In this document: positions 25,932-46,566 of the stretch, one piece after another | Layout: every line of letters starts with the position of its first letter | Position numbering within the stretch: the stretch's first letter is position 1 | Assembly: GCA_028286605.1 (NCBI GenBank) | Contig: JAQBRE010000002.1 | Location: 191,720-255,719, forward strand | Length of the DNA stretch: 64,000 bases | Direction of reading: 5' to 3' | Source of the DNA: Parcubacteria group bacterium | GTDB lineage: Bacteria; Patescibacteriota; Minisyncoccia; Phycocordibacterales; Phycocordibacteraceae | Program-made: the position numbers and the translations under genes | The notes under the pieces: model-generated | Told to the model about the DNA's origin: nothing | Database searches by the model: none | Seen by the model: only the letters and a program-made list of their open reading frames with translations

Positions 25932-25934
25932 TTC

Positions 25935-27912: not shown

Positions 27913-28439
27913 TAAAACTACGCACAAAGAAGGGATTTACGCTTGTTGAAACGCTGGTAGCGATTTCGATACTCATGGTTAGTATCGTGGGCCCCATGTA
28001 TAGCGTATTTCAGGCTGTACAGACAACGTACATCGCGCGCGACCAGCTTATTGCAACGGCATTGGCACAGGAGGGGATAGAATACGTGCGTCATCATCGC
28101 GATAATAATTCCCTCTACAACCTCAAGAACCCTGGAAGCCCCGTATCATGGATGAATGGGCTCAGTGCATGTACCGGACAGAATTGTATGGTAGATGTTA
28201 TTGCTTCTGATAGCGTTCCGCCGGTTACATGTAGTGGTACGTGTTCGCCCCTCGACAATGCTACTGTTGCTCCCTTTTATTATAACTATATAAGTGGTAC
28301 GCCAAGCCGCTTTACTCGCACGGTCAGAATCAACACGGTAAGCGCAAATGAAGTAGTCGTAACCTCGACGGTGAGCTGGATTAATTCGAAGATTCCATTT
28401 TCTGTTACCGTTACGGAACACTTGTATAATTGGCTATGA
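27909..28439 (+). CDS. Minor pilin / pseudopilin 3
   Basis: Class III signal: KKGFTLVETLVAISILMVSIVGP. Confidence 0.7.
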   Translation: MIKLRTKKGFTLVETLVAISILMVSIVGPMYSVFQAVQTTYIARDQLIATALAQEGIEYVRHHRDNNSLYNLKNPGSPVSWMNGLSACTGQNCMVDVIASDSVPPVTCSGTCSPLDNATVAPFYYNYISGTPSRFTRTVRINTVSANEVVVTSTVSWINSKIPFSVTVTEHLYNWL

Positions 28440-33538: not shown

Positions 33539-34162
33539 ATGGGAACCACTACGGTTACAACGACCGGTCCGGCCGTACATTTCATTAATGTCGAGTATTT
33601 TTTCCGACTCCTGTACGACCTCATCTTCGGCCTGCACATTGGTTCGGTGAACGTCGGCATCGGCAACACATCTGGTCTCGTTACGCTTGCCGGACAGATC
33701 TGGCTTTTCATAAGCGTCATCGCGTGGATCGTCGCGCTCGGTGCATGCTGGGCGCTCGTCTATTACACGACACGGTACTGGCAGTTGCTTGAACAGGAGA
33801 ATGAACGATACACGACTATCTCTGAACCGGAGGCACATGTACAGGTGGAACATTCACGCTGGGCGTACATAAAACAGCTTATCGAGAGTCCGCAGGAAAG
33901 CGATTGGCGCCAGGCGATCATCGAAGCAGATATCATGCTGGACGAAGTGCTTACGCGTTCGGGATATCAGGGCAATACGATTGGCGATAAGCTGAAGACC
34001 GCGAATCCAGATCGCTTCACGACCATTCGCAATGCATGGGACGCGCATACTGTGCGCAATGAAATTGCGCACTCGGGCTCTGCATATCAGCTCACGAACC
34101 ACGCTGCATTCCGCACGATTCAGAATTACGAAGCGGTGTTCCGCCAGTTCAACGAGATTTGA
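33539..34162 (+). CDS. Membrane-anchored protein with a C-terminal HEPN-like domain (tentative)
   Basis: Has two N-terminal TM helices. The C-terminal ~100 aa are helical and contain RNEIAH, which is Rx4H, the HEPN catalytic motif pattern. Confidence 0.5.
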   Translation: MGTTTVTTTGPAVHFINVEYFFRLLYDLIFGLHIGSVNVGIGNTSGLVTLAGQIWLFISVIAWIVALGACWALVYYTTRYWQLLEQENERYTTISEPEAHVQVEHSRWAYIKQLIESPQESDWRQAIIEADIMLDEVLTRSGYQGNTIGDKLKTANPDRFTTIRNAWDAHTVRNEIAHSGSAYQLTNHAAFRTIQNYEAVFRQFNEI

Positions 34163-34827
34163 TTCGGTATTTCAGCAATACTTGCGAGTATTCTTCTTCG
34201 AAGCGAGGTGCTGTTTCGTACTTTTATGCGAATCGTGCCGATATAGGTTTTTGAATCACGATCTACGTTTCCATACCCGCTTATATATGTTGGTTTTGAA
34301 AATTGTTCTCTGGGAATATTTGTCTCTTTAGACCAGAAAGAAGTAATTCTCTCGGTTTCGTCATTGTATAAATTATTAATTGTTATTCGAGCATGAATAT
34401 CTTTTAGTGGAATTTGATAACACATATCGAGCCATTGAATTGCGGTATTTATAATCTTTGGGTCTGAATTCGTAAATCCAAACTCCTGACTTCCTCTTTT
34501 GTATCCTTCACCCCAATACAAACCAATTCCAAGCATAAAAAGATCACGGATTTGTAACATGTCTATATCTTCTTTCCCTTGCTTTGTCTGAGCCAAGATG
34601 TCATGAATTTTTCGAGTCTTGTTTTTCTCAATCCACGGAGCAAGTGCTGCTAGTGACGCAGTGCGATGTCGTTCAGACAAGTACTCCTTCTGCTTAGTCG
34701 TTAGAGAAACGTTTTTACACCATCTACTTACAGTGCTGCTGCTTACTCTTAGGTTGTCGGCAATTTCCTTAATACTCATTCCGCTCGCGCGGAGTTCCAA
34801 AGCCCTCCCATGAAGTTCATTTTTCAT
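34126..34827 (-). CDS. HTH-LAGLIDADG homing endonuclease (single-motif) with N-terminal helix-turn-helix
   Basis: Has the HTH MSIKEIADNLRVSSSTVSRW and the LAGLIDADG-type motif LFMLGIGLYWGEGYK. Divergent from the intron-containing tRNA(CAU). Confidence 0.65.
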   Translation of the reverse strand: MKNELHGRALELRASGMSIKEIADNLRVSSSTVSRWCKNVSLTTKQKEYLSERHRTASLAALAPWIEKNKTRKIHDILAQTKQGKEDIDMLQIRDLFMLGIGLYWGEGYKRGSQEFGFTNSDPKIINTAIQWLDMCYQIPLKDIHARITINNLYNDETERITSFWSKETNIPREQFSKPTYISGYGNVDRDSKTYIGTIRIKVRNSTSLRRRILASIAEIPNQISLNWRNTAS

Positions 34828-34884
34828 ACTTTAATGCTAAGCATATATCGGTAAATATTCTCTATATTTTGAGTGAATATAGCA

Positions 34885-34913
34885 TTGCGTTCTTCATATT
34901 TTCCCTATATAAT
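34885..34913 (+). promoter_or_regulatory. Putative sigma70-like promoter for the tRNA(CAU) precursor
   Basis: TTGCGT, a 17-nt spacer, then TATAAT within TATATAAT, ending 8 nt before the tRNA 5' end. Confidence 0.4.
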
Positions 34914-34921
34914 CGCCGGAT

Positions 34922-35210
34922 AGCGGGGTAGAGGAGAGGTACCTCGGGAGGATTGAATTATAAGGGCGTCCGCAGGAGCAATCATGTGGAAGATCAACTG
35001 CCAAATTCGGTGAAACCCTCACGTCCGAAAGGACGAAAGGCAATGCCGAGCCAAGCCTGTCGAAAGACAGGAAGGTGTAGAGACTAGACGGTAGACACCC
35101 CTCGTGGGTGAAGGCATAGTCCAGACCACAAATTCGTCTTCGGACGAAGCAACGAAAGTTGTAGCGGCAAGCATAACCTCCAGACGCCGGTTCGATTCCG
35201 GCCCCCGCAA
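34922..35210 (+). tRNA. tRNA(CAU) (Met/Ile2-type) interrupted by a group I intron; exons 34922-34953 and 35172-35210
   Basis: Exon 1 reads AGCGGGG-U8-A-GAGG-AGAGGUA-CCUC-G-GGAGG-AU. Exon 2 reads CAUAA-CCUCC-AGAC-GCCGG-UUCGAUU-CCGGC-CCCCGC-A. The spliced anticodon loop is AUCAUAA, with U8, A14, G18G19 and the T-loop conserved. Confidence 0.8.
34954..35171 (+). ncRNA. Group I self-splicing intron (IC3-like) in the tRNA anticodon loop, about 218 nt, no internal ORF
   Basis: The 5' splice site follows U33 and the 3' splice site follows a G. Core segments CCAAAUUCGGUGAAACC, GGCAAUGCCGAGCCAAGC and GAAGGUGUAGAGACUAGACGG match the Azoarcus tRNA-Ile(CAU) intron P4-P7 core as recalled from memory. Confidence 0.8.
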
Positions 35211-35287
35211 CACGATTGTGACATCAGGAACCAATACCGGCCCCTGTCAAAGTTGGTATTGTACCGGTTCGGGTGTTCAACAGAAAA

Positions 35288-35318
35288 AGTCTGCAAATAT
35301 CATGCAGGCTTTTTCTGT
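35288..35318 (+). terminator. Rho-independent terminator downstream of tRNA(CAU)
   Basis: Hairpin AGTCTGCA-aatatca-TGCAGGCT followed by TTTTTCTGTG. Confidence 0.6.
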
Positions 35319-35392
35319 GTGTATGCTGGGTGGCGCCCATCTACAGCTCAGGATAGTATGTATCTATTCAAATTACTTAAGAACAATATCGT

Positions 35393-35986
35393 ATGAAGAC
35401 ATCTAACACTCTTTGGATTGCAGTAGCATTAGTAGTCATTATCGTAGGAGGGTACTGGTACTGGAGCACGACTCAGTCTTCAAGCACATCACCCGCGGCA
35501 GTTTCCACCGGTACGCAAACGGCTCCGATAGCGTCAACAGTAAATGTAGGTTCGAACGCGCAGCTCCCTAGCTACCTAACTGCAGCAAACGGAATGGCAC
35601 TGTATACCTATAATGCTGATACGTCAGGGGTAAGCAACTGCACTGGTTCATGTGCTGGATTCTGGCCTCCGTATACAGTTTCGAGCACAGCCAATATCTC
35701 TGCGGGATCAGACATCTCAGGAACCATCGGAACGATAAAGCGTGCAGATGGAAGCATGCAGGTTACCTATAACGGCATGCCTCTCTATTTCTTCGTTCAG
35801 GACAAGAATTCTGGACAGGTAACAGGGAACGGAGTACAAAACTTCTCAATCGCTACGCCAACCACGGTGTCGGCACAAAAAGCGGCTGCTGCACCAAAGA
35901 CCGTGGCACCCGCTGCGCCTGTAGTAGCTCCGGTTAAAACAACGCCTGCGCCTACGACACCTGCCCCGTACAACTACAATTATTAA
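35393..35986 (+). CDS. Secreted protein of the 'secreted repeat of unknown function' family (COG4315-like)
   Basis: Has a signal/TM and a twice-repeated motif GMALYTYNAD...CTGSCAGFWPP / GMPLYFFVQD. The tail is Pro/Ala/Thr-rich. Confidence 0.7.
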   Translation: MKTSNTLWIAVALVVIIVGGYWYWSTTQSSSTSPAAVSTGTQTAPIASTVNVGSNAQLPSYLTAANGMALYTYNADTSGVSNCTGSCAGFWPPYTVSSTANISAGSDISGTIGTIKRADGSMQVTYNGMPLYFFVQDKNSGQVTGNGVQNFSIATPTTVSAQKAAAAPKTVAPAAPVVAPVKTTPAPTTPAPYNYNY

Positions 35987-36026
35987 TCGCATCTGAGCTG
36001 GGAACTCCGGTTTCTATACTCAAAAG

Positions 36027-36060
36027 AAAAAGCTCGCACGGTACGCGCGAGCTTTTTCTT
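36027..36060. terminator. Bidirectional rho-independent terminator
   Basis: An A-run, the hairpin GCTCGCAC-ggtac-GCGCGAGC, then TTTTTCTTTC. Sits between convergent genes. Confidence 0.6.
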
Positions 36061-36072
36061 TCATCGTACTTC

Positions 36073-36624
36073 TTACTTCGCGATACCTTTCACGTAGGCA
36101 AGCATCGTCTCTGCATCTGATACTTCGAATGGGTCTTCAGGATAATCGTCGGAAAGTCCTGGTTCAATGAAGAGCTTCTGTATGACGCCGTCTTTGACGA
36201 GCATCGAGTAGCGCCAGCTACGGTTACCGAATCCGAGATTCTCTTTCTTTACGAGCATTCCCATCTTCTCAGTGAATTCGCCGTTTCCATCGGGAAGCAC
36301 TTGTACGTGCTTCAGTCCGAGCTTGTCTGCCCATTGCTTCATCACGAATGCGTCGTTGACCGAAAGGCAGTAGATCGCATCTATGCCCGCTGCTTTGAAC
36401 TCGTCATACTTCGCTTCGTAGCCGGGGGCATGGGTTGTAGAGCAGGTAGGAGTAAATGCACCCGGAAGGCCGAATACGACTACATTCTTTCCGTCAAAAA
36501 TCTCTGCAGATGAAACATCTTGCCAGCGATAGGGGTTTTCACCGCCGACAGATTCATCGCGCACACGGGTCTTGAATATAGCCTCAGGGATATGTTCTTT
36601 TTCTTTTAGTGGTTGAGGGCTCAT
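36073..36624 (-). CDS. Peroxiredoxin, Prx5 subfamily, copy 1
   Basis: Has VVFGLPGAFTPTCS (peroxidatic Cys context) and an AhpC/TSA fold. Confidence 0.9.
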   Translation of the reverse strand: MSPQPLKEKEHIPEAIFKTRVRDESVGGENPYRWQDVSSAEIFDGKNVVVFGLPGAFTPTCSTTHAPGYEAKYDEFKAAGIDAIYCLSVNDAFVMKQWADKLGLKHVQVLPDGNGEFTEKMGMLVKKENLGFGNRSWRYSMLVKDGVIQKLFIEPGLSDDYPEDPFEVSDAETMLAYVKGIAK

Positions 36625-36686
36625 CGTGGTTTTGTTACTAGAAAATTAATCTTAAATATAGCACGAATCAGTGGTAGTATGAATGA

Positions 36687-37097
36687 ATGAAACGGTTTCG
36701 GCACATAGTAGCCTTTTCGTTAGGCCTATTCCTGCTTGTCGGGGTCTCTGTCTGCGCAAGCATGATGCTTATGTCGCAGCCGCACGCAAGCCTGAATGCG
36801 CCTGTGTCGTATCACCAGCTTTGCGCACCCCTCGGAAATTTTCCCTGTTTGCCTCTGGGTCATCTTGTGGTCTGGCAGGTGATATTTAGCGGCATTCCAA
36901 GGCTGATTACGTTCCTGGCGCTTCTCATCTCCATAGGCATCTCGTGCGCTTTTTCAATTTTCTTTACGCGGAGACGTGTGATGCGAGATGTGCGAGCACA
37001 CACCGCGCAAGCTGCTCGTTCCAGACTCCTACCGAGTACGCCCCTGCAGGAAGCTTTTTCGAACGGCATCCTTCACTCGAAGCGGTTTTCATACTAG
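36687..37097 (+). CDS. Hypothetical membrane protein (uncertain ORF)
   Basis: Has hydrophobic segments and no recognisable motif. It may not be a real gene. Confidence 0.3.
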   Translation: MKRFRHIVAFSLGLFLLVGVSVCASMMLMSQPHASLNAPVSYHQLCAPLGNFPCLPLGHLVVWQVIFSGIPRLITFLALLISIGISCAFSIFFTRRRVMRDVRAHTAQAARSRLLPSTPLQEAFSNGILHSKRFSY

Positions 37098-37156
37098 ATC
37101 ATCGGTCTAACTGATGTGGTAGCGCCGCTGCGCTTATTCCATCGGTATTATTCACT

Positions 37157-37885
37157 ATGACTATTCGTATGAAATTAGAATTCAAATTAAACACACTCAT
37201 CTTACCCGTTGCAGTGCTTGTCGCAGCTATCCTCATCTCAGGTTCTCTGTTGTGGAGCAGTAATCGCGCATCGGCGGCGGCGATTGCGGCGAACACGCCG
37301 CCTGGAGCGCAAGCGCCATCGATACCAGTCGATTCAAACAAGGTAGTCACGGACAATGAACCGTATGTCGGAGACCAAAACGCCCCTATTACTATCGCGT
37401 ACTGGTTCGATTACCAGTGCCCATTCTGCCACCAGGACGAAGAGACCGTGATACCGACACTCATTCAACAGTATGTAGATACTGGGAAAGTGAAAATCGT
37501 ATTCAAGGATTTCCAGTTTCTTGGCGCTGATTCGACGACACTCGGAGAAGTAGCACGTGCTGTATGGGAAGTATCGCCTAACCAGTTCTATGCATGGCAC
37601 AAGGCAATGTTCGATGCGCAGGGGACTGAGAACACCGGATGGGCAACTCCAGAGAAGATCAAATCAGTGACGACAAACATTCTGGGAGCTGCTACGGCAG
37701 ATAAGGTGCTCGCGCTCTCCGTAAGCAAGGCGGCTACCTACCAGCAAGAGATGCAGGCAGACCAGACTGAAGCAGAGAACTTCGGCGTAAATGGAACCCC
37801 GTCTATGATTATTGGCAAGCAGATTATTGTCGGTGCACAGCCTATCGCGCAGTTTGAGGCAGCGATTGCGGCAGCAAGCAAATAA
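37157..37885 (+). CDS. DsbA-family thiol:disulfide oxidoreductase 1
   Basis: Has an N-terminal TM anchor and a thioredoxin-fold active site CPFC within YWFDYQCPFCHQ. Confidence 0.85.
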   Translation: MTIRMKLEFKLNTLILPVAVLVAAILISGSLLWSSNRASAAAIAANTPPGAQAPSIPVDSNKVVTDNEPYVGDQNAPITIAYWFDYQCPFCHQDEETVIPTLIQQYVDTGKVKIVFKDFQFLGADSTTLGEVARAVWEVSPNQFYAWHKAMFDAQGTENTGWATPEKIKSVTTNILGAATADKVLALSVSKAATYQQEMQADQTEAENFGVNGTPSMIIGKQIIVGAQPIAQFEAAIAAASK

Positions 37886-37892
37886 GAGAGAT

Positions 37893-38660
37893 ATGGATCA
37901 GAAACGCATGCTGCTCTGGGTGTTCTTTCTCGTCGCCATATCTGGTATCGTGGTCGCTGTCTTAGCTGTCTCAGGAAAGGGGGGTACGCCTGCACCAACG
38001 CAGGCCGTACAACTAACTGCGCCGGTTACTGCGGCGGATCATACCATTGGTTCTAGCAGTGCTCCGGTCACTGTCGTCGAGTACGCTGACTTCCAGTGCC
38101 CTGCATGTCAGGAGTACTCGCCGATTATTACGCAGCTGGTCAAAGACGAAGGACCGAAGGTGTATTTCGCCTATAGGTATTTCCCTTTGACGCAGCACAT
38201 GAACGCGCTTCCTTCTGCCAAAGCAGCAGAAGCAGCAGGGCTACAGGGAAAGTTCTGGGAGATGCATGACCTTCTCTTCGCTAACAATGCGGACTGGGAG
38301 AACCTACAGGACCCAACCCTGGTCTTCGTGGGATATGCGAAAACGCTTGGGCTTGATACGACGCAGTTCGCACAGGATATGAAATCGGCCAAGGTGGCTG
38401 GAGTAGTGAATACTGATCTTGCTTTTGCGGATGCCAACCAGCTTACGTATACTCCGAGCATCTTCGTGAATGGCGTGCTCATCAATAATCCGTCTAGCTA
38501 TGCGGACTTCAAGAAGCTCATCGATGACGCAGCAGGGACTCCCGTTCCGCAGACTGCGTCAGCGCCAAGCTCTGCAGGATCCGCGACGATCGCAGCGACC
38601 TCTACTGCCGCCGCACCCGCTGCATCCGCGCCGGCGGCACCGAAACCGTATGCTTGGTAA
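37893..38660 (+). CDS. DsbA-family thiol:disulfide oxidoreductase 2 (ORF opens at 37812; likely start MDQKRM)
   Basis: Has a TM anchor and active site CPAC within EYADFQCPACQEY. Confidence 0.85.
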   Translation: MDQKRMLLWVFFLVAISGIVVAVLAVSGKGGTPAPTQAVQLTAPVTAADHTIGSSSAPVTVVEYADFQCPACQEYSPIITQLVKDEGPKVYFAYRYFPLTQHMNALPSAKAAEAAGLQGKFWEMHDLLFANNADWENLQDPTLVFVGYAKTLGLDTTQFAQDMKSAKVAGVVNTDLAFADANQLTYTPSIFVNGVLINNPSSYADFKKLIDDAAGTPVPQTASAPSSAGSATIAATSTAAAPAASAPAAPKPYAW

Positions 38661-39135
38661 GTTGCTTAACGGAATCCTCCAGAAACTGTCGATAAGCCCG
38701 ATACTGCTTTGGTTGTTCAGCTTGCTCGCGACGCTCGGCTTCATCGATTCGGTCTATCTGACGATCGATCACTATACGCATGGCATCGTGCCGTGTTATG
38801 TAGGAAGTTGCGAAACAGTGCTCACGAGCTCATATGCGAATGGTCTCTTCGGTATCCCGATACCGGTTGCCGTGCTGGGTGTCATATTCTATTTTTCAGT
38901 CCTAGTACTCCTCATGGTGTATTTCGATTCAAAGAATAAAATCGCGCTCTTGCTCGCATTGCTTGCGACATCAATAGGGGTTCTTGCCTCCGGATATTTC
39001 ATCTATCTCCAGGCAGATGTCATTGGTGCATGGTGTCAGTATTGTCTCTTCTCGGCGTTCACGTCGACGACGATGTTTGTAATCGCATTACTGGTAACAA
39101 CTAAAATATGGATGAATTCTTCTTCCACCTCGTAA
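38650..39135 (+). CDS. Vitamin K epoxide reductase (VKOR) homolog (ORF opens at 38470; likely start MLGKLL at 38650)
   Basis: Has TM helices, a Cys pair in the loop (CYVGSC) and the active-site CQYC. Its start overlaps the stop of the upstream DsbA gene. Confidence 0.85.
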   Translation: MLGKLLNGILQKLSISPILLWLFSLLATLGFIDSVYLTIDHYTHGIVPCYVGSCETVLTSSYANGLFGIPIPVAVLGVIFYFSVLVLLMVYFDSKNKIALLLALLATSIGVLASGYFIYLQADVIGAWCQYCLFSAFTSTTMFVIALLVTTKIWMNSSSTS

Positions 39136-39704
39136 ACAATCTTGCCGGGCAATCGGCAAGCGTGGATACAGTAGTGAAGTATCTCTCCACTAATGATCAG
39201 CCGATCATGGAGTGGGTAGGGGTGCTGTGCATTGGGTTTGCAGGAGGCAGACTCCTCAAGCCAAAGGTCAGGATGGGAATCGTGGTCGTGATCTCTGGAC
39301 TCATCACCGGATATATCGCGCTCATGACGAACTTCTTCTTGTGGTTCCATCGTGCACGGCCGTACACGGTGCTGACCGGGAATGATATACATCTCTTGAC
39401 CAAGGTAAGCGCCGCACAAGCATACACTTCGTTCCCTTCGGGGCATGCGATGTTCTTCTTCTCAATTGCAACTGCTGTGTTCCTCACGGACAAGTGCAAA
39501 TGCAAGAAGTTGGGCTGGCTCGCATATGCTGTTGCAACGGTGTTAAGTCTGAGCAAGCTCTACGTGGGAGCGCATTGGCCAAGCGATCTTATTGTCGGCG
39601 GCCTGCTCGGTTCTGCCATCGCATGGATCGTGTGGCGTATTGTGAAGTGCGTGTGCAAGCGGATACAGTCTCGAAAGACCGTTCCTGAAATAGTGAAAGT
39701 GTAG
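39108..39704 (+). CDS. PAP2-family phosphatase (undecaprenyl-diphosphatase-like)
   Basis: Has PAP2 motifs PSGHAMFFFSIATA and HWPSDLIVGG. Confidence 0.8.
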   Translation: MDEFFFHLVNNLAGQSASVDTVVKYLSTNDQPIMEWVGVLCIGFAGGRLLKPKVRMGIVVVISGLITGYIALMTNFFLWFHRARPYTVLTGNDIHLLTKVSAAQAYTSFPSGHAMFFFSIATAVFLTDKCKCKKLGWLAYAVATVLSLSKLYVGAHWPSDLIVGGLLGSAIAWIVWRIVKCVCKRIQSRKTVPEIVKV

Positions 39705-39740
39705 GAGTGCGTGTCAATCCGCGTTCTGCGGAACATGAGT

Positions 39741-39780
39741 AAGACGAACGGCGCGAGAAATCGCGCCGTTCGTCTTGTAT
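39741..39780 (+). terminator. Rho-independent terminator
   Basis: Perfect 16-bp hairpin AGACGAACGGCGCGA-gaaa-TCGCGCCGTTCGTCT followed by TGTATT. Confidence 0.55.
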
Positions 39781-39827
39781 TGCTTGGTACCGTACCCGTG
39801 CTGGCAATACGTTAAATGCACTGATTC

Positions 39828-40379
39828 TTATGCGGCGCTCCCTTTCACATACGCAAGCATCGTCTCTGCATCCGATACTTCGAAGGGGTCCTCGGGGTAA
39901 TCATCAGAGAGGCCGGGCTCAATAAAGAGTTTCTGTATGACGCCGTCTTTTACGAGCATGGAATAGCGCCAGCTACGATTACCGAACCCAAGATTCTCTT
40001 TCTTCACGAGCATGCCCATCTTTTCGGTGAACGCGCCGTTCCCGTCCGGAAGCATTTTTACGTTCTCAAGTCCGAGCTTGTCTGCCCACTGCTTCATGAC
40101 GAACGCGTCGTTCACTGAGAGACAATAGATCTCATCGATCCCGAGCGCTTTGAATTCATCGTACTTCGCTTCGTACCCCGGAGCATGCGTCGTAGAGCAG
40201 GTAGGTGTGAACGCGCCCGGAAGACCGAACACCACTACATTCTTTCCATCAAAAATCTCTGCGGACGGTACATCCTGCCAACGGTACGGGTTCTCACCGC
40301 CGATAGATTCATCGCGCACGCGAGTCTTGAAAACTGTTGCAGGAACACATTCTTCTTCTTTCAGGGGTTGGTGTGACAT
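39828..40379 (-). CDS. Peroxiredoxin, Prx5 subfamily, copy 2 (paralog of 36073..36624)
   Basis: Identical in length (183 aa) and almost identical in sequence to copy 1, with the same PGAFTPTCS motif. Confidence 0.9.
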   Translation of the reverse strand: MSHQPLKEEECVPATVFKTRVRDESIGGENPYRWQDVPSAEIFDGKNVVVFGLPGAFTPTCSTTHAPGYEAKYDEFKALGIDEIYCLSVNDAFVMKQWADKLGLENVKMLPDGNGAFTEKMGMLVKKENLGFGNRSWRYSMLVKDGVIQKLFIEPGLSDDYPEDPFEVSDAETMLAYVKGSAA

Positions 40380-40464
40380 GATGTTTTGTTAGTAGAAAAT
40401 CAGGCATACGATACCACGATCCGGTTGTAGCGTGAATGAAGTGTGCCGAGAGCTACGGCAACGA

Positions 40465-40968
40465 TTACGCCGATTCGCGTTTTCGAACGACCGCATATTC
40501 GCGATAGATGAAATACAGCACGACGAGGTCGAACGCTGTTATCGCAACAACAAGTATCGAGTGCAGGGTTACGATCTGATATATCTGATACAGAACGAAC
40601 AGTCCAAGCACGACGAGTGAAGCAGGATAGGCCCACAGCTTATTACGGAGCAGAGCGACGATAAGAAAAAGCTTTATGACGCCTCGACTGAGCAGATAGA
40701 ATGCTAAGAAAATCTCGAGCGACGTAGAGAATGAATGTGCAAGGTGCAGTATCTGGTTCGCGATGAAATCATTCGGTTCTTCCATGAGTTCGCCGCGCGT
40801 AAAGAACATCGCAAGCTGGTTCACGAGCGTAGGCCGTGCGAAGAGCATGAGTGCCCCCGCGATAATCTCTAGTATGGACACCGCTCCCTTAAGAAGGATG
40901 CCGATGCGGAAATATTCATATATATTCTTTTCAGTTTCCATACTTATAGAACTATACCTCTCCACCAT
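40465..40968 (-). CDS. Membrane protein, DUF2127-like, paralog A
   Basis: Has four TM helices. Shares the LLRNKLWAYP...VLYQIYQI motif with 52531..53112. Confidence 0.5.
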   Translation of the reverse strand: MVERYSSISMETEKNIYEYFRIGILLKGAVSILEIIAGALMLFARPTLVNQLAMFFTRGELMEEPNDFIANQILHLAHSFSTSLEIFLAFYLLSRGVIKLFLIVALLRNKLWAYPASLVVLGLFVLYQIYQIVTLHSILVVAITAFDLVVLYFIYREYAVVRKRESA

Positions 40969-41507
40969 ACGCTGCGTTCAATGGCAGGGCTTACATACTG
41001 TGCAACGAACCAGCCGCACGCGATACCAAGCACTGCGCCCGCAATGATGTCAGAAGGGTAATGTATCCCAGCGGCAACACGTGCAAGGACGACGAACGTG
41101 CTAAGAACGTAGAAGAGAACCCCAAGCTTCTTATTCATGAAATACACGCCCGTTGAGAACGCGAAGAAAAAGAGCGCGTGGCCGGAAGGGAAGGAAGGCG
41201 CGTGCTCCTGAATAAGCTGATGCACCTGATAACTAAGGAAGGGTCGAGGTCGCGGAAAGAAATAACGTATCGGGCTTCCGATACCGATACGAGCGATGAG
41301 CGCGCCAAGTAACACCGAGCTGAACGCAAAGAGCTTCTGCTTAATTGAGAGCAGCTGCTGCGAAAGCAGATACAGTGCGAAGCCAGCCACGAGCATGTAT
41401 GGCAGGTACGACGCGATCCCTACGATCACTGCATTGGTAAGCGGATTGTGCCCAGCAAGACTGTTGAGCGCAAAGAAAAGAGTTATGTCCCAGGATCCGA
41501 AATTCAT
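40944..41507 (-). CDS. PAP2-family phosphatase, second copy
   Basis: Has PSGHALFFFAFSTG and HYPSDIIAGA. Confidence 0.75.
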   Translation of the reverse strand: MNFGSWDITLFFALNSLAGHNPLTNAVIVGIASYLPYMLVAGFALYLLSQQLLSIKQKLFAFSSVLLGALIARIGIGSPIRYFFPRPRPFLSYQVHQLIQEHAPSFPSGHALFFFAFSTGVYFMNKKLGVLFYVLSTFVVLARVAAGIHYPSDIIAGAVLGIACGWFVAQYVSPAIERSVWWRGIVL

Positions 41508-42331
41508 TTTTTAATGATACCGGTATCTCGCTTCGTAATACTAAGATAGATCACCAGAACAAGAATAGCGGCAAGGAAGATAAAACTGGTCACTGTTGTA
41601 CCAAGCCCGAGGCCGCCACTGCTTATATCTTGAGAGAGATAATCGCCGATAGACGCTCCGAGCGGTCGCGTAAGAATATATGCGACCCAGAACGCAGCAA
41701 CGGCATTAGCAGATTCAGGCAGGTGTTTGGATTCATTCATGGCTTTTCCTGTGTAGTGGAATGTAGCGACGATGCCTATCAGTGCCGCAAAGATAAGAGC
41801 GGAAATAAGATATCCGAAGTTAAGTCCCTCAGCCATCCAGTCTCCTGCAGAAGTGCCGAGTGCGAATGTGAATAGGATTGCGAGCCAATAAAAGGCTTCA
41901 CGCTTCGTAGTAAAGATGGAGTGGATGGAAAGCGTATGCTCAACGCGATACCAGATCCAGAACACGGCGGCCAAGATGAGACTGAACACCAGTGTCGTAA
42001 CCGGAAGAGCTACGCCAAGATTATCGGTCAGATTATCCGTAATCTGCGTGCCGACGACGCTGATAAGCACCACGGAAAGCCAATAAATCCAGGGAACATA
42101 TTTTCGCGACCGGAACTGCATAAAAAGAACGACCGCAAGAACTGCGGCAGTAATGAGGGTCGTGATAGTAAGGCCAAGATTGACGGTAGATTGTAGGAAA
42201 TCGGAAGCAGTCTCGCCGACGGTCGTGCAAAGCACCTTGATAATCCAGAAATATACGGTAATTTCCGGTACTTTGCTTAGCATTTTCCCTACTTTATCAT
42301 TCTGAATAACAGGAGCTTCTGTTGGCGGCAT
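41504..42331 (-). CDS. Polytopic membrane protein with internal two-fold repeat (COG4705-like)
   Basis: Two halves each carry ...SDFL/GDYLSQ plus a TM bundle. Confidence 0.5.
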   Translation of the reverse strand: MPPTEAPVIQNDKVGKMLSKVPEITVYFWIIKVLCTTVGETASDFLQSTVNLGLTITTLITAAVLAVVLFMQFRSRKYVPWIYWLSVVLISVVGTQITDNLTDNLGVALPVTTLVFSLILAAVFWIWYRVEHTLSIHSIFTTKREAFYWLAILFTFALGTSAGDWMAEGLNFGYLISALIFAALIGIVATFHYTGKAMNESKHLPESANAVAAFWVAYILTRPLGASIGDYLSQDISSGGLGLGTTVTSFIFLAAILVLVIYLSITKRDTGIIKK

Positions 42332-42425
42332 GGATACGTGGCTATGAGTAAATAAATGGGCAGCAGCCCTCCCTCATAGTACGCGTTTCATGCCGTTTTA
42401 TTTCATATGGAATATACTCAGATGA

Positions 42426-43001
42426 ATGGACCCCTCAGACTCGACCGACGAAGCGCTTGCGCAGCGCCTGCAGGCAGGAGACGAAGAGTCACTCTCGCTT
42501 CTTATGCAGCGCTTCGAGCCGAAGCTGATGCGCTATGGCCGGCGCTTCCTTGAAGGGCAGCGCGAGGACGTGTTGCGCCAGGCCGTACAAGACATTTTCA
42601 TTTCTGCGTATCAGAATATCGAATCCTTCGACCCGCGTCAGAGATTCTCGCCCTGGATATATCGCATAGCGCATAACGCATTCGTTGATATCTTGCGGCG
42701 AAGAACGAAGCAGCCGCTCTATGGAATCGATTTCGACCAGCTGATTTCACATCCGATACATGAGGACTCATTCGCTGCAGAGAAAGAACAAGAGGAAATC
42801 CGCGTACTAGTAGAGAAGGGTCTTGGTGAACTCGCTCCTGCCCAGCGCGAAATAATAGTCCTATACTATTTCGAAGAGCTGAGCTACAAGGAAATAGCTG
42901 ATGTGCTTCATGTGCCGGTGAGCACCGTAGGAGTTCGGCTCGCTCGCGCACGCACGACCCTGAAGCGCACGCTGCCGAACTCCTCCGAACTACCCCTATG
43001 A
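42426..43001 (+). CDS. RNA polymerase sigma factor, ECF subfamily
   Basis: Region 2 reads FSPWIYRIAHNAFVDILRRR. The region 4 HTH reads LSYKEIADVLHVPVSTVGVRLARAR. Confidence 0.85.
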   Translation: MDPSDSTDEALAQRLQAGDEESLSLLMQRFEPKLMRYGRRFLEGQREDVLRQAVQDIFISAYQNIESFDPRQRFSPWIYRIAHNAFVDILRRRTKQPLYGIDFDQLISHPIHEDSFAAEKEQEEIRVLVEKGLGELAPAQREIIVLYYFEELSYKEIADVLHVPVSTVGVRLARARTTLKRTLPNSSELPL

Positions 43002-43723
43002 ACGAGAATAACCCAGATTCCATACAGCAGGCCGTACTCGACAAAGTTCGGGCAGGAACAGTACGTCGTCGTCCGCGCTGGCAATTCATCCTGCGCGTAG
43101 CAGGAACTATCGTGGTTATATCGCTGCTACTCGTTATCGCTGCCTTCCTCATAAGTTTCATCCTGTACAGCTTGAATGAAAGCGGCGAGCAATTCCTGCT
43201 CGGTTTCGGACTTCGCGGCATACAAGTATTCCTGACGCTGTTCCCGTGGCTATTCGGCCTCGTTGCGCTTGGCCTTATCGTGCTGCTCGAATGGCTCATT
43301 CGCGGATTCAGATTCGGCTACCGCATACCGCTTCTGAATATATTCCTAGGCGTTGTCGGCGTGAGCATCGTGCTCGGTATAGTAATAAGCGTTACGCCGC
43401 TTCACACGACCCTGCAAGGATTCGCCGCTAAGGACCAGCTTCCGATACTCGGGCAGCCCTATAAGCACGTCCTGGATCATCATGAAGATGAGGGACTTTC
43501 GCGCGGAAAAGTCATAACCGTTGGTGCGAATGAATTCATCATTCAGCACGATGATCACGACCGCGATACGGACGACGGGACCTTTTCCATACACGTAGCC
43601 CCTGATGCGTCTATCGTGCTTCCGCATGTCGGTGATGAAGTCCTCGTATTCGGCGAACCGGAACAAGGGTATATAGACGCTAGTAACGTACTAGTGCTAT
43701 CTCCGCTTTTACCGGTGAAATAA
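42998..43723 (+). CDS. Membrane protein downstream of the ECF sigma (putative anti-sigma factor)
   Basis: Overlaps the sigma-factor stop. Has multiple TM helices and a C-terminal soluble domain. No RsiW zinc motif was recognised. Confidence 0.45.
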   Translation: MNENNPDSIQQAVLDKVRAGTVRRRPRWQFILRVAGTIVVISLLLVIAAFLISFILYSLNESGEQFLLGFGLRGIQVFLTLFPWLFGLVALGLIVLLEWLIRGFRFGYRIPLLNIFLGVVGVSIVLGIVISVTPLHTTLQGFAAKDQLPILGQPYKHVLDHHEDEGLSRGKVITVGANEFIIQHDDHDRDTDDGTFSIHVAPDASIVLPHVGDEVLVFGEPEQGYIDASNVLVLSPLLPVK

Positions 43724-43769
43724 AAAGAGGCGAATGTGCGTACTAAGGCTATACACCCGAGAATAGTCT

Positions 43770-44285
43770 ATGAAAAAATTCCTCGCATCATTCATCTTTA
43801 TCGTCGGATTCATCGGGTACGCCGTGTATGCGAATAGTTCAGCTTCGAGTGCTAACGCACAGACCGTTACGGTATCTAATCCTTCCGCTAGCACGGCGGC
43901 CGATACGGCCGCCTCTGTACCAACGCAGACATCCGCAGGATCGGCACCGCCGACACAACCGGTAACGCCTGTGACGGTAGTGAAGAAGCCGGCCGCTGCG
44001 GCCGGCAAATATGCCGATGGCACCTACACTGGCATCGCCGCGGATGCGTACTACGGAAACATTCAGGTGAAAGCAACAATCTCCGGAGGAAAGCTTACAG
44101 ATGTGGCCTTCCTGCAATATCCCTCGGATCGAAATACATCCGTCTATATAAATCAGCAGGCGATGCCCGTGCTTCGTTCGGAAGCTATCCAAGCGCAGAG
44201 CGCGAATGTAAATGGGGTCTCCGGGGCATCAGATTCGAGCGCGGCATTCAAGCAGTCTCTTGCAAGCGCGCTTGCCAAGGCATAA
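43770..44285 (+). CDS. Secreted FMN-binding domain protein (NqrC/RnfG/PplA-like)
   Basis: Has a signal peptide, then KYADGTYTG...G.IQVKATISGGKLTDV (FMN_bind pattern) and VNGVSGASDSS. The latter fits the [ST]GA[ST] motif flavinylated by ApbE. Confidence 0.75.
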   Translation: MKKFLASFIFIVGFIGYAVYANSSASSANAQTVTVSNPSASTAADTAASVPTQTSAGSAPPTQPVTPVTVVKKPAAAAGKYADGTYTGIAADAYYGNIQVKATISGGKLTDVAFLQYPSDRNTSVYINQQAMPVLRSEAIQAQSANVNGVSGASDSSAAFKQSLASALAKA

Positions 44286-44287
44286 CT

Positions 44288-45034
44288 ATGAGACAGCAGC
44301 GAATTATCATGGGCATGCCCGTGCAACTTGAAATTACAGACGAACACGCACCGCTCGAGCTATACGAACGAGTATTCGATTATTTAAAAAGTATCGATAC
44401 ACGTTTCAGTACGTATATACAAGAGAGTGAAGTATCGAGAATCAATCGCCATGAACTGAAAGAAGCAGAGTACAGTGCTGAGATGCAGGAAGTGCTTTCG
44501 CTTTCAGAAGAAACGAAGAACCAGACCGGAGGATATTTCGATATACGTACTCCTGAAGGACTTCTTGATCCGTCAGGTCTCGTGAAAGGGTGGGCGATCA
44601 ATGCCGCGGCATCAATAGTTTCTGAAGCAGGATTCAAGGATTTCTACATTGAGATCGCCGGTGACATTCAGACGAACGGCATGAATGCTGAAGGGAAGGA
44701 GTGGAGTATCGGCATTCGTAATCCGCTTTCGCGCGACGAAGTGGTGAAAGTCCTGTATCCACGAGGCGCAGGAATCGCGACTTCCGGAACTTCTGAGCGC
44801 GGAAATCATATATACGATCCCCATGCGCCAGGCGTACATCCCGATTCGTATGCGAGCATAACGGTTATCGGACCGAACGTGTACGAAGCTGATCGCTTCG
44901 CCACCGCTGCGTTCGCCATGGGCGAATCGGGCATCCGTTTCATTGAGGCGCTGCCCGGCTTCGAGGCATATGCGATCAATCATAAAGGAATCGCGACCAT
45001 GACGAGCGGCTTCGATTCATACACGAACATATGA
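44288..45034 (+). CDS. apbE: FAD:protein FMN transferase ApbE
   Basis: ApbE family pattern: GGYFDIR...GLVKGWAI...IEIAGDI...ATSGTSERG. Confidence 0.85.
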   Translation: MRQQRIIMGMPVQLEITDEHAPLELYERVFDYLKSIDTRFSTYIQESEVSRINRHELKEAEYSAEMQEVLSLSEETKNQTGGYFDIRTPEGLLDPSGLVKGWAINAAASIVSEAGFKDFYIEIAGDIQTNGMNAEGKEWSIGIRNPLSRDEVVKVLYPRGAGIATSGTSERGNHIYDPHAPGVHPDSYASITVIGPNVYEADRFATAAFAMGESGIRFIEALPGFEAYAINHKGIATMTSGFDSYTNI

Positions 45035-46551
45035 TGCGCTTCATCGACTCATTGCTGAATAAAATAACGATGTATCGTGTCGTGTTGTATGAACTCCTGT
45101 TCCTGCTTGCTGCCGCTGCAGTGCTTGGTGTGTTTCATCTGATTCCGTACAGTCCTTTATATATAGGGTATTCAACGCTCGTTATTCTTGCGGTCTGTTG
45201 GATATCGAACAAAGCCTTCGCCTATTTCTTTGATGCTCCGAGCAATCCGGAATCTGCATATATCACTGCGTTCATTCTTGCGCTCATCATTGCGCCGCCA
45301 CAGGCATTCGGCGACGCACACTTTTTAATACTTGCAGGCTGGGCTTCTGCATGGGCGATGGCTTCTAAATATATCTTCGCAATACAGCGGAAACATCTCT
45401 TCAATCCCGCCGCCTTCGGCGTCGTGATGACTGCGCTTTTTTTGAATCAAGGCGCAACGTGGTGGGTGGGAACGTTATGGATGCTGCCATTCGTTGTGGT
45501 GGGAGGCTTCTTCGTTGCGCGAAAGATACGCCGGTTCGATATGGTGGTCACCTTCGGAATTGCGCTTGTCGCTACGATTCTAATTCTCGGTACCGGAGGC
45601 GGTTCGCTGCATGTCGTACAGCAGGCGCTCTTATATGCGCCCGCGGTATTCTTCGGCACCGTCATGCTGACAGAACCACTCACCGCCCCGACCGACCGGT
45701 ATTGGCGTATTCTCTTCGCGGTGCTCGTCGGCTTCTTGTTCGCTCCTGAAGTGCACATCGGTACGTTCTATCTAACGCCGGAGCTGGTGCTTCTAGCAGG
45801 AAATCTATTCGCATATGTAGTGAGTTCGAAACAGAAGCTCGTGCTTACGCTTAAGGAGCGCATTCCGATAGCGACAGATGCCTATGAGTTCGTTTTCTCA
45901 TCCGATCGTGCGCTTACCTTCAAGCCAGGCCAGTATCTTGAATGGACGCAGGCACATTCGCACAGCGACTCGCGCGGCATACGTCGTTACTTCACTATCG
46001 CTTCTTCGCCGACCGAGAAAGACTTACGTATCGGTGTTAAATTCTACAAGCCTTCAAGCAGTTACAAGAAGGCGTTGTTCGCACTGCGCCCAGGCGATAC
46101 CATCGTCGCCTCGCAGCTTGCGGGTGACTTCACTCTACCTAAAGACAAGAAGAAAAAGCTCGTATTCATTGCGGGCGGCATAGGTGTCACGCCATTCCGC
46201 AGCATGATCCAGTATCTTATAGACAAGAAAGAGCGGCGCGACATCACCCTCATATATTCAAATCGATCGCTGGAGGATACTGCGTATGTCGAGCTGCTTG
46301 GCCAAGCAGAAAGGGAACTGGGTATTGAAACGCTTCCTATATTCAATACGCCGCCTCCGAATGCAGCTCCGGGTGAATTCCCATCGCTCCTAACGCCTGA
46401 AGTGCTCGCCACGGAAGTACCTGATTATCGGGAACGGGAATTTTATCTGTCAGGACCGAACAGCATGGTCAACGCATTCAGCGATATGCTTGCTAGCATG
46501 GGCGTACCGAAGCGACACATCAAGAAGGATTTTTTCCCTGGCTTCGCGTAG
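45031..46551 (+). CDS. Membrane oxidoreductase: NqrB/RnfD-like polytopic domain fused to an FNR-type FAD/NAD(P)-binding domain (tentative)
   Basis: The N-terminal ~280 aa have multiple TMs and HLFNPAAFG. The C-terminal region has RRYFTIAS (RxY[ST] FAD motif), GGIGVTPF (NAD-binding) and a C-terminal aromatic. No 2Fe-2S Cys cluster was seen. Confidence 0.6.
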   Translation: MMRFIDSLLNKITMYRVVLYELLFLLAAAAVLGVFHLIPYSPLYIGYSTLVILAVCWISNKAFAYFFDAPSNPESAYITAFILALIIAPPQAFGDAHFLILAGWASAWAMASKYIFAIQRKHLFNPAAFGVVMTALFLNQGATWWVGTLWMLPFVVVGGFFVARKIRRFDMVVTFGIALVATILILGTGGGSLHVVQQALLYAPAVFFGTVMLTEPLTAPTDRYWRILFAVLVGFLFAPEVHIGTFYLTPELVLLAGNLFAYVVSSKQKLVLTLKERIPIATDAYEFVFSSDRALTFKPGQYLEWTQAHSHSDSRGIRRYFTIASSPTEKDLRIGVKFYKPSSSYKKALFALRPGDTIVASQLAGDFTLPKDKKKKLVFIAGGIGVTPFRSMIQYLIDKKERRDITLIYSNRSLEDTAYVELLGQAERELGIETLPIFNTPPPNAAPGEFPSLLTPEVLATEVPDYREREFYLSGPNSMVNAFSDMLASMGVPKRHIKKDFFPGFA

Positions 46552-46566
46552 CTGCGTTGCTCAAAG

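Follow-up and report, generated by a model that had tools for sequence, protein, structure and literature searches.

The locus described here belongs to a small-genome Parcubacteria (CPR) bacterium and consists of an operon of envelope genes bracketed by two peroxiredoxin genes. Its best explanation, to which we give a probability of roughly 0.75, is that two unrelated and ordinary features lie side by side: an ancient pair of duplicated peroxiredoxin (prx) genes, and a vertically inherited envelope operon encoding DsbA, VKOR and PAP2 proteins. The locus is real and correctly annotated. It is ordinary because the prx copies stem from an old duplication and have diverged too far to recombine, and because this type of operon is already known from CPR bacteria.

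Organization of the locus

The window, which is the whole 64-kb stretch of DNA that was analysed, is part of a 532-kb contig. prxA (36073-36624) and prxB (39828-40379) both lie on the minus strand and bracket a 3.2-kb block of genes. These genes are arranged on the plus strand in the operon order DsbA1 (37157-37885), DsbA2 (start at 37893 or 37908, end at 38660), VKOR (38650-39135) and PAP2a (39108-39704). Adjacent genes overlap by 11 nt at the DsbA2-VKOR junction and by 28 nt at the VKOR-PAP2a junction. The two 183-aa prx ORFs of the same orientation described in the first-pass annotation lie at exactly these positions, and its identification of the genes as Prx5-type peroxiredoxins, two DsbAs, an overlapping VKOR and a PAP2 protein was upheld by Pfam and PDB matches. 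Independent assemblies agree with the arrangement: the Logan contig L002 matches 36520-46634 without a difference (100% identity), and identity to the JGI contigs L001 and L167 is 99.8% and 100%.

The peroxiredoxin genes

Both prx proteins match the Pfam Redoxin/AhpC-TSA families (Redoxin, 2.2e-28 for prxA and 4.8e-28 for prxB) and belong to the Prx5 subfamily. In addition to the Redoxin domain, both copies contain the PGAFTPTCS peroxidatic-Cys motif (PxxxTxxC) and the conserved Arg (RSWRY region), and their alignment to 1NM3 takes in the active site. This entry, the Prx5 domain of H. influenzae HI0572, is the best match among solved structures (E 8e-54), and the top PDB matches (1NM3, 1XIY, 1TP9, 3UMA and 1HD2/PRDX5) are of the Prx5 type; the NCBIfam models for AhpC, BCP and PrxQ scored far below their cutoffs. 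A second Cys lies 25 residues downstream of the peroxidatic Cys (C61 and C86). PGAFTPTCS, C61/C86 and RSWRY are held in common with the HI0572 Prx5-Grx hybrid, human PRDX5 and plant type II Prx. Unlike 1NM3, the proteins studied here have no fused glutaredoxin and occur as two diverged paralogues; their alignment to it begins at residue 15, so that about 14 residues at the N terminus lie outside it, and contains a 9-residue insertion at approximately residues 23-31. A hydropathy scan found no hydrophobic or transmembrane segment or signal in either copy, and the proteins are therefore predicted to be cytoplasmic. No Trx or Grx gene was present in the window as a candidate source of prx reductant; a 79-aa glutaredoxin gene lies 1.5 kb from prx in one relative (L178). 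Nearly every freshwater CPR MAG encodes a peroxiredoxin (PMC9166423).

Each prx gene is predicted to be transcribed on its own, between an extended -10 promoter and a hairpin terminator. A likely bidirectional terminator (36023-36061) lies between prxA and the convergent gene Lipo15 and consists of the palindromic hairpin AAAGAAAAAGCTCGCACGGTACGCGCGAGCTTTTTCTTT flanked by an A-run and a T-run; within it is a minus-strand terminator-like site (36047-36035). Likewise, the convergent PAP2a and prxB are separated by a perfect 16-bp hairpin, AAGACGAACGGCGCGA-GAAA-TCGCGCCGTTCGTCTT (39741-39776), also a likely bidirectional terminator. The prxA promoter and leader (36625-36687, minus strand) contain a promoter-like site with TG at 36683-36655, whose extended -10 is TGCTATATT, and the leader motif TTTTCTAGTAACAAAAC at 36629-36645. 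This region was duplicated with the gene. Its homologue upstream of prxB (40380-40441, minus strand) contains a -10-like TGGTATCGT and the leader TTTTCTACTAACAAAAC, and the two upstream regions are 75% identical over 59 nt.

Age and divergence of the prx pair

The copies had been described as near-identical paralogs, which holds for the proteins (90.2% amino acid identity) and fails for the DNA, where 450 of 552 nt (81.5%) are identical. Codons are identical at 96 of 184 positions, differ synonymously at 70 and non-synonymously at 18, and third positions differ in 79 of the 184. The resulting pS is 0.66, as high as that between species (0.67-0.87), with dS of approximately 1.6 (near saturation), dN of 0.056 and dN/dS of 0.035. 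The first-pass annotation had proposed a nucleotide alignment to date the duplication, and had named as the outcome that would speak against its reading an ancient synonymous divergence together with an arrangement fixed in all relatives; the first of these, ancient divergence at synonymous sites, is what the alignment revealed. The near-saturation of synonymous sites means that exchange between the copies has not homogenised them. Nor is there a conversion tract, since their longest stretch of perfect identity, 20 nt, does not exceed what permuted mismatches give (mean 22.7, P(>=20)=0.76).

prxA and prxB were sister paralogs in 500 of 500 neighbour-joining bootstraps. Among 5.8 billion proteins no prx protein was more than 84% identical, save one 96%-identity strain variant. 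Of the 18 differences, 11 are derived in prxA and 4 in prxB, and prxB is consistently 2-5 points closer to orthologues. prxA is the faster-evolving copy and prxB the more conservative one. Judged from their codon differences, both copies appear to be under strong purifying selection, as in textbook examples of paralogues that have long been retained together. The pair also serves as a caution that saturated synonymous divergence can hide behind 90% protein identity. We suggest an ancient duplication, within this Parcubacteria lineage, of a monocistronic prx unit of about 615 bp that comprised promoter, leader and CDS. Either a tandem copy later split by insertion or a dispersed duplication may have given the present order. 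Both copies would have been kept as working cytoplasmic peroxidases, with prxA changing faster. Retention may have come about through dosage or differential regulation.

The prx copies had also been proposed to form direct repeats of about 550 bp, through which homologous recombination could excise, duplicate or amplify the DsbA-VKOR-PAP2 cassette. The copies have the same orientation, and their homologous length is about 615 bp (the CDS and about 60 nt upstream, ending at the stop codon). Short-read contigs break near them, although two co-occurring strains of 96% identity explain the breaks equally well. The proposal is not supported by the degree of divergence (18.5%) or by the length of the perfect blocks, which is no better than that of permuted mismatches. 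RecA-dependent recombination in E. coli has a minimal efficient processing segment of about 20-30 bp, and the longest perfect prx block is at or below this size; divergence of the kind found between the copies lowers recombination by orders of magnitude. In addition, none of the sequences of high identity showed an allele with one prx or a variant lacking the cassette, and DsbA2-VKOR is old in its neighbourhood, as its synteny with CMAS at equal divergence from L164 shows. Composite transposons and other repeat-bounded amplifiable units (rrn- or IS-bounded) resemble the locus in having same-orientation homologous segments around a block, here of 3.2 kb. Unlike in those units, the repeats here are functional genes with identical blocks of at most 20 nt, and no mobility genes or polymorphism were observed. 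As recombination-competent repeats the copies were rejected, since near-identity with long perfect blocks was not found. Given the saturated synonymous divergence and the short identical run, a role in recombination or excision is therefore unlikely, to the point that we give it almost no weight.

The DsbA-VKOR-PAP2 operon

DsbA1 is a DsbA-like protein with a CPFC active site (Pfam Thioredoxin_4 5e-27, DSBA 3e-17). Its PDB matches include 4PWO, BdbD and ScsC-like (copper-stress) proteins, and its homologue in contig L088 belongs to a gene cluster with a heavy-metal P-type ATPase. DsbA1 shares just 25% identity with DsbA2 and is an additional paralogue. DsbA2 is DsbA/MdbA-like (Pfam Thioredoxin_4 6e-29), has a CPAC active site and is the VKOR partner. 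The DsbA proteins encoded upstream of VKOR in four other contigs all have CPAC as well; their identity to DsbA2 is 62% in L164, the closest VKOR contig, and 37-39% in L170, L172 and L175. Both proteins have the features of the DsbA fold: CPFC with GTPS in DsbA1 and CPAC with YTPS in DsbA2 (T-P loops), and DsbA-type PDB matches (4PWO, BdbD and 3BCI, 'Disulfide bond protein A'). Both would be membrane-anchored, by a single N-terminal hydrophobic segment that was located by hydropathy scan only (residues 14-32 in DsbA1, 8-26 in DsbA2).

VKOR is a stand-alone homologue of 161 aa with four predicted TM helices (Pfam VKOR 5.8e-24). C49, C54, S60 and C129xxC132 are invariant in 17 homologues. Searching the PDB by sequence gave no match for it. 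The AF2 model (pLDDT 89.7, pTM 0.82) predicts a four-helix TM bundle with the VKOR fold, and the top 14 PDB matches of the model in Foldseek were all VKORs (TMq 0.52-0.72), with those of Synechococcus and human on top (0.6-0.72).

PAP2a belongs to the PAP2 family of lipid phosphate phosphatases (Pfam PAP2 6.7e-19), and its PDB matches include LpxE and PgpB. The family motif (KxxxxxxRP / PSGH / SRxxxxxHxxxD) is represented by HRARP, FPSGH and SKLYVGAHWPSD, the K of the first motif not being evident. Matches to the NCBIfam SepP and UppP models were weak and all below cutoff. PAP2a is probably an undecaprenyl-diphosphate or PGP phosphatase, and it would be co-translated with VKOR.

The closest known system is the MdbA/DsbA-VKOR pathway of monoderms (MdbA-VKOR of Actinomyces oris and Corynebacterium, DsbA-VKOR of Mycobacterium tuberculosis) together with its CPR counterpart, fam000318 and fam000898 (PMC6744442). 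The locus resembles it in several ways. First, a membrane-anchored DsbA with CxxC and T-cisPro lies directly upstream of, and overlaps, a stand-alone four-TM VKOR. Secondly, this VKOR has the loop Cys pair, the conserved Ser and the CxxC, and candidate pilin substrates have paired cysteines. Third, the proteins of solved structure that come closest in sequence are DsbA and BdbD from Gram-positive bacteria. Unlike the known system, the locus has two DsbA paralogues (CPFC and CPAC), a translationally coupled PAP2 and a CPR host.

In the proposed pathway the two DsbAs would put disulfides into exported proteins, and VKOR would re-oxidise the DsbAs, chiefly DsbA2, and pass the electrons to a membrane quinone. 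Re-oxidation of DsbA2 by VKOR may be supported indirectly by the overlapping gene pairs, which occur in five loci. Type IV pilins are the likeliest clients. All eight pilin-like ORFs in the window have an even number of cysteines (2, 4 or 6), which is a small in-genome argument for pilins as substrates. Pilins have also been proposed as substrates in CPR, in which an MdbA-like family and VKOR are an enriched feature (Méheust 2019, PMC6744442); VKOR adjoins the MdbA-like family in 88 of 750 genomes (PMC6744442). The first-pass annotation had considered a DsbA-VKOR pathway in such an organism to be notable. The pathway genes are indeed present, and the locus is one more case of a pathway already published for CPR (Méheust et al. 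2019, PMC6744442).

Conservation in relatives and origin of the arrangement

prx is single-copy and has no adjacent cassette in 160 GTDB and metagenome loci, and the same is true of the nearest relatives, L176 and L178; the copy count in about 165 related loci covers the available flank, up to ±10 kb. In contig L086 the surrounding gene order is the same (GatCAB-orf207 ... prx ... FMN_bind-ApbE-NAD_binding), and it encloses a single prx and lacks the cassette. The adjacency of prx and DsbA/VKOR is thus absent from other species, both in these approximately 165 prx loci and in four other DsbA-VKOR loci. No relative at 84-100% prx identity has a long enough contig, and the view of close relatives comes from two fragments that are consistent with a stable arrangement: L166, from a 96%-identical strain, keeps PAP2b-DUF2127-prxB, and L169, from an 82%-identical relative, keeps VKOR-PAP2a. 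DsbA2 and VKOR also form an overlapping, conserved gene pair in four other Parcubacteria-like contigs (L164, L170, L172 and L175). DsbA2, VKOR and the nearby CMAS are each 61% identical to their L164 counterparts, and this equal divergence argues for vertical descent.

Alternatively, one prx may have arrived together with DsbA-VKOR-PAP2 from a related Parcubacterium, beside a tRNA gene, in which case the prx pair would be xenologues. The interval from GatCAB-orf207 to FMN_bind-ApbE is variable among relatives. An intron-containing tRNA(CAU) gene (34922-35211) does lie 0.9 kb from the candidate island, and a low-GC gene (GC 0.40) with HTH/transposase-like matches lies just upstream of prxA (34126-34827). 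Several findings argue against an import. The prx copies are each other's closest relatives, both in the bootstraps and in the search of 5.8 billion proteins, and the synteny at equal divergence with L164 includes CMAS. The GC and GC3 of the cassette genes and of both prx match the rest of the window (GC3 0.54-0.64). No integrase, att-like repeats or flanking remnants were found at the locus, nor any repeats other than prx. We consider an imported island unlikely, and vertical inheritance of the operon beside an old duplicate pair remains the preferred reading.

Possible relation of the peroxiredoxins to disulfide formation

A functional link between the two features was also considered. The peroxiredoxins could remove H2O2 or superoxide formed when O2 re-oxidises VKOR-reduced quinol in a cell without a full respiratory chain, making the locus one co-selected oxidative module. 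In favour of this, prxA and the DsbA operon diverge from a common intergenic region, and envelope and redox genes abound in the DNA around them (an ECF sigma factor, a putative anti-sigma factor, FMN_bind-ApbE-NAD_binding and a DsbD_TM-Redoxin fusion). Contig L164 has a GST gene immediately upstream of DsbA-VKOR and, at a distance of 4 kb, an operon for a cyo quinol oxidase. However, the adjacency is not conserved, the Prx proteins are predicted to be cytoplasmic whereas the DsbA active sites would be extracytoplasmic, and each prx has its own predicted promoter and terminator. A shared ECF-type promoter motif was looked for at the locus and none was found. A coupling of this kind is doubtful.

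Reports generally describe CPR bacteria as lacking quinone biosynthesis. No men, ubi, cyo or cyd gene was recognised in the window (Pfam on ORFs at about 35.4-52 kb, other ORFs by their first residues). In a CPR cell without quinone synthesis or respiration, DsbA-VKOR might run on scavenged, host-derived quinone that is re-oxidised by O2 directly, with the flanking cytoplasmic Prx5 proteins removing the resulting peroxide. If true, this would be a self-contained oxidative-folding module without a respiratory chain, with prx dosage raised by duplication; we regard it as quite improbable. The locus bears on how quinone-dependent enzymes such as VKOR and cyo would work in CPR bacteria thought to lack quinone synthesis, a question that was already known.

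In eukaryotic ER oxidative folding, PRDX4, VKOR and Ero1 all oxidise PDI. The same three families (peroxiredoxin, VKOR and thioredoxin-fold oxidoreductase) occur at this locus, as an analogy only: unlike ER PRDX4, the Prx proteins here are of the Prx5 type and have no signal or TM segment, and so they would not reach the DsbA active sites.

Lastly, the interval contains a seventh ORF that was absent from the first-pass annotation. This doubtful ORF, orf136 (36687-37097, plus strand), would encode two hydrophobic segments and four Cys, and it lies in the divergent intergenic region shared by prxA and the DsbA operon. It had no Pfam match and no homologue among 5.8 billion proteins, and its exact sequence occurred in no gene call from any source. 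Instead of a gene, it may be non-coding spacer DNA or the stretch that holds the DsbA operon promoter.

Organization of the locus

Biologically the locus, from a Parcubacteria (CPR/Patescibacteria) MAG, is ordinary. The peroxiredoxin duplication is old, and its two copies happen to flank a disulfide-formation operon of a type known from CPR. The open reading frames of the first-pass annotation lie exactly where it had placed them, and its gene identities were correct. The two Prx5-type peroxiredoxin genes, prxA (36073-36624) and prxB (39828-40379), are on the minus strand. On the plus strand between them are DsbA1 (37157-37885), DsbA2 (37893 or 37908 to 38660), VKOR (38650-39135, overlapping DsbA2 by 11 nt) and PAP2a (39108-39704, overlapping VKOR by 28 nt). 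The exact proteins are deposited at NCBI as MDB5265569-MDB5265574, encoded on a 532,551-bp contig, and NCBIfam returned no above-cutoff name for any cassette protein. Independent assemblies from other samples give the arrangement base for base (L002, 100% identical over 36520-46634; L001, 99.8%; L167, 100%), and thus the locus is not an assembly artefact.

Perfect hairpins at 36023-36061 and 39741-39776 divide the convergent genes, so each prx gene looks monocistronic, with its own predicted promoter and terminator. Directly upstream of prxB is a membrane-protein operon, DUF347-PAP2b-DUF2127 (40465-42331, minus strand), divergent from an ECF sigma gene. Part of the 532-nt spacer between prxA and DsbA1 is occupied by orf136 (36687-37097, 136 codons). 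This is a doubtful open reading frame and unlikely to be a conserved gene: it has no Pfam match, a search of 5.8 billion proteins gave no homologue, and none of the sources calls a gene there. Within the spacer, an Rfam scan (34700-37250, relaxed threshold) likewise found nothing credible.

Divergence of the peroxiredoxin genes

The two genes had been described as near-identical, which is true of the proteins (90.2% identity) but not of the DNA, where 450 of 552 nt (81.5%) and 96 of 184 codons are the same and homology stops at the end of the coding sequence. Another 70 codons differ synonymously and 18 non-synonymously, and 79 of the 184 third positions differ. Nei-Gojobori estimates were pS 0.66, dS approximately 1.6 (near saturation), dN 0.056 and dN/dS 0.035. 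By the same measure, pS was 0.67-0.87 when the two copies were compared with their nearest orthologues; thus, synonymous sites are about as scrambled between the paralogues as between species. The longest perfect identical run was 20 nt, compared with a mean of 22.7 ± 5.0 when mismatches were permuted within codon positions (probability of a run of at least 20 nt, 0.76). In 60-nt sliding windows, identity was 67% in the first window and 75-90% afterwards. Gene conversion and recent duplication were therefore ruled out by the high pS, a run length equal to the permutation expectation and the lack of any locally raised tract.

The first-pass annotation had proposed that the copies could act as direct repeats which recombine to excise or duplicate the cassette, and had suggested a nucleotide alignment as a check. 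That alignment found copies anciently diverged at synonymous sites, a result which the annotation had itself named as counting against the idea. Diverged repeats with short perfect blocks recombine poorly, owing to MEPS and divergence effects. At 18.5% divergence and with no perfect block longer than 20 nt, the prx copies would be poor substrates for homologous recombination, and the saturated synonymous divergence indicates that no sequence has been exchanged between them for a long time. The proposal was not borne out and is considered highly improbable.

Homology between the copies runs from about 60 nt upstream, where a conserved leader (TTTTCTAsTAACAAAAC) follows an extended -10, through the coding sequence to the stop codon. 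Searches of the upstream and downstream regions by blastn, tblastx and blastx found only this upstream homology, with no wider duplicated segment and no remnants of pseudogenes or of a larger duplication beside either copy. The leader motif (36629-36645 and 40383-40399, minus strand) is SD-less and stands directly before the prx start codon, downstream of an extended -10, TGnTATACT. Both window copies have TTCTAsTAACAAAAC, and the orthologous form (contigs L004, L083, L085, L086 and others) is CTTAsTCAyTAAC.GAAAC. Its conservation despite saturated synonymous sites suggests a regulatory or translational element.

Origin of the pair and arrangement in relatives

The closest prx homologues are all in Parcubacteria, Paceibacteria and Kaiserbacteria MAGs. 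In a neighbor-joining tree that included the 28 closest distinct homologues, the two genes were sisters in 500 of 500 bootstraps. The next closest cluster in a search of 5.8 billion proteins was 84% identical, and the only extra member of the 90% cluster of prxA and prxB differs from prxB at one residue and comes from a co-occurring strain of 96% identity. Polarisation of the 18 amino-acid differences with eight outgroups assigned 11 derived changes to prxA and four to prxB, with three ambiguous; such asymmetry is the usual pattern after duplication. Four substitutions specific to prxA (E83A, K108Q, M109V and A116E) fall at sites where eight close orthologues do not vary. In addition, both copies and the cassette genes have GC and GC3 values like those elsewhere in the window. 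Sister status, the lack of a closer homologue, the asymmetry of derived changes and the matching composition together point to an old, lineage-specific duplication within the genome, with both copies under strong purifying selection.

Among 160 loci, half from GTDB species and half from metagenomes, each followed for up to ±10 kb as far as its contig reached, prx was always single-copy in the sequence covered and never adjoined a DsbA-VKOR-PAP2 block. The two nearest relatives (L176, 84%, and L178, 83%) also have a single prx with no cassette alongside, in quite different contexts. Contig L086 (prx 80%, GatA 70%) keeps the large-scale frame of the window, bounded by GatCAB-orf207 and by FMN_bind-ApbE-NAD_binding. 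Between these frame genes, L086 carries one prx and unrelated GST, UDG, MarR and HlyD genes, and thus the interval is a variable region. No closer strain, with or without the cassette, was found: the best match was 83% in the GTDB scan and 81% among metagenomes, and the next best in the protein search was 84%. Close relatives were recovered as fragments only, one retaining PAP2b-DUF2127-prxB (L166, 96% nt) and one retaining VKOR-PAP2a (L169, 82% nt). The adjacency of prx and the operon appears to be unique to this lineage.

The Parcubacteria Prx5 proteins share 67-74% identity with their counterparts in Gammaproteobacteria and Betaproteobacteria such as Methylomonas, Methylobacter, Methylophaga and Methylotenera (methylotroph and other proteobacterial loci L057-L059, L062, L063, L065-L072, L077 and L081). 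Since these are as close as many CPR-CPR pairs, the comparison hints at inter-phylum transfer of the gene.

The disulfide-formation operon

Four other Parcubacteria-like contigs carry the DsbA2-VKOR pair as a conserved two-gene unit in which VKOR overlaps the DsbA gene before it. CPAC, the motif of DsbA2, is present in all, and DsbA2 identity is 62% to L164 and 37-39% to L170, L172 and L175. Compared with L164, identity is 61% for DsbA2, for VKOR and for a nearby cyclopropane-fatty-acid synthase alike. This equality argues that the DsbA2-VKOR pair was probably inherited vertically in its neighbourhood and not recently imported. In VKOR, C49, C54, S60 and C129xxC132 are invariant. A sequence search of the PDB gave no match for VKOR, and its fold was settled by structure prediction and Foldseek: the AF2 model (pLDDT 89.7) matches VKOR structures from Synechococcus, Takifugu and human, with no other fold at E <0.01. 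PAP2a resembles LpxE, PgpB and undecaprenyl-diphosphatases, and is 32% identical to PAP2b (40944-41507) of the adjacent operon.

DsbA1 (CPFC) is only 25% identical to DsbA2. Its closest homologue outside the source population (L088, 55%) belongs to a cluster with a heavy-metal P-type ATPase, and ScsC-like copper-stress proteins are among the PDB matches of DsbA1. DsbA1 may therefore have another client set, in metal-stress repair rather than general oxidative folding. The L088 cluster (12907-17104) encodes the heavy-metal P-type ATPase (HMBD), DUF302 and a SHOCT protein.

The identities, motifs, fold, topology and operon structure of the cassette are established, and each DsbA has one N-terminal membrane anchor. 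From what is known of DsbA-DsbB and MdbA-VKOR, the anchored DsbAs would oxidise cysteine pairs in exported proteins, and VKOR would re-oxidise the DsbAs and reduce a membrane quinone. Eight type IV pilin-like open reading frames (24260-29743 and 52018-52560, plus strand) have 2, 4, 4, 4, 4, 4, 6 and 6 Cys outside the N-terminal helix; other predicted exported proteins in the window have 0 or 2. The even count in all eight fits disulfide-bonded pilins as candidate clients. Dutton et al. reportedly used an even-number cysteine bias as a signature in 2008.

A DsbA-VKOR pathway in a small-genome organism had been called notable. The pathway genes are present, but the feature is already known, since the MdbA-like oxidoreductase family was reported to be enriched in CPR (Méheust et al. 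2019, PMC6744442). The quinone source of VKOR in CPR is likewise a question already known in the field. In L164, the closest VKOR contig, a cyo-type quinol oxidase operon lies 4 kb from GST-DsbA-VKOR, and thus at least some Parcubacteria-like relatives cluster quinone-dependent enzymes. The cyo operon is complete (COX2+COX_ARM, COX1, COX3, COX4_pro and UbiA/heme O synthase); L164 positions 255-5138 and 8543-10441 cover this operon and GST-DsbA-VKOR. Such oxidases occur in some Paceibacteria, acquired from Gammaproteobacteria, and nearly every freshwater CPR MAG has peroxiredoxins (Chiriac et al. 2022, PMC9166423).

Relation of the peroxiredoxins to the operon

Neither Prx protein has a membrane anchor, and the Prx5 enzymes are predicted cytoplasmic peroxidases requiring a Trx or Grx reductant; no gene for such a partner was found within the window. 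An O2-driven oxidative-folding module using scavenged quinone, with dedicated peroxide clean-up, has the adjacency as its sole positive support and is considered very unlikely. A search for a shared ECF-type promoter (AAC-N16-18-CGT) in front of FMN_bind, the ECF sigma gene, the prx genes and the DsbA and DUF347 operons found none. Because the adjacency is unique to the lineage and the proteins act in different compartments, the prx genes and the operon probably have no functional tie.

Other features of the window

The stretch 42426-46551 (plus strand) contains the ECF sigma gene, an overlapping 241-aa 3-TM open reading frame, a secreted FMN_bind protein, an ApbE flavin transferase and lastly a 506-aa membrane protein that has about five TM and ends in an FNR-like NAD_binding_1/6 domain. 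The set resembles a module for extracytosolic flavinylated electron transfer. The 241-aa product has no Pfam match and is possibly an anti-sigma factor. The FMN_bind-ApbE-NAD_binding block is kept in L086, and FMN_bind and NAD_binding were also matched in L083. A 594-aa fusion of DsbD/CcdA-type transmembrane, ResA/TlpA-like Redoxin and Thioredoxin_10 domains (50208-51992, plus strand) represents a reductive thiol pathway of the envelope, at a distance of 11 kb from the DsbA-VKOR operon, which is oxidative.

A tRNA gene at 34922-35211 (plus strand) is split in its anticodon loop by a group I intron of approximately 218-220 nt, and was missed by default ARAGORN and by Rfam at the gathering threshold (Intron_gpI, 43.1 bits against a gathering score of 50, E 8e-10). 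When introns are allowed, ARAGORN calls it tRNA Ser(tga). The U(-1)/omega-G splice rule instead gives the loop AU|CAUAA, anticodon CAU, insertion at 33/34 and an A1xA72 mismatch, in agreement with the known tRNA-fMet 33/34 intron site listed by Nakagawa et al. 2025 (bioRxiv 10.1101/2025.07.03.662931). Immediately upstream is a 233-aa open reading frame (34126-34827, minus strand; GC 0.40, GC3 0.36) with an N-terminal HTH, weak matches to IS630, IS3 and IS21 transposase HTH regions, and weak homologues (27-31%) near prx in L038, L046 and L078. Lastly, open reading frames at 34-513 (plus strand) and 15604-16221 (minus strand) contain LAGLIDADG-like motifs (AGLIDGEG, IGDGN), seen in translations only, and may be free-standing homing-endonuclease-like genes of a kind common in CPR genomes.
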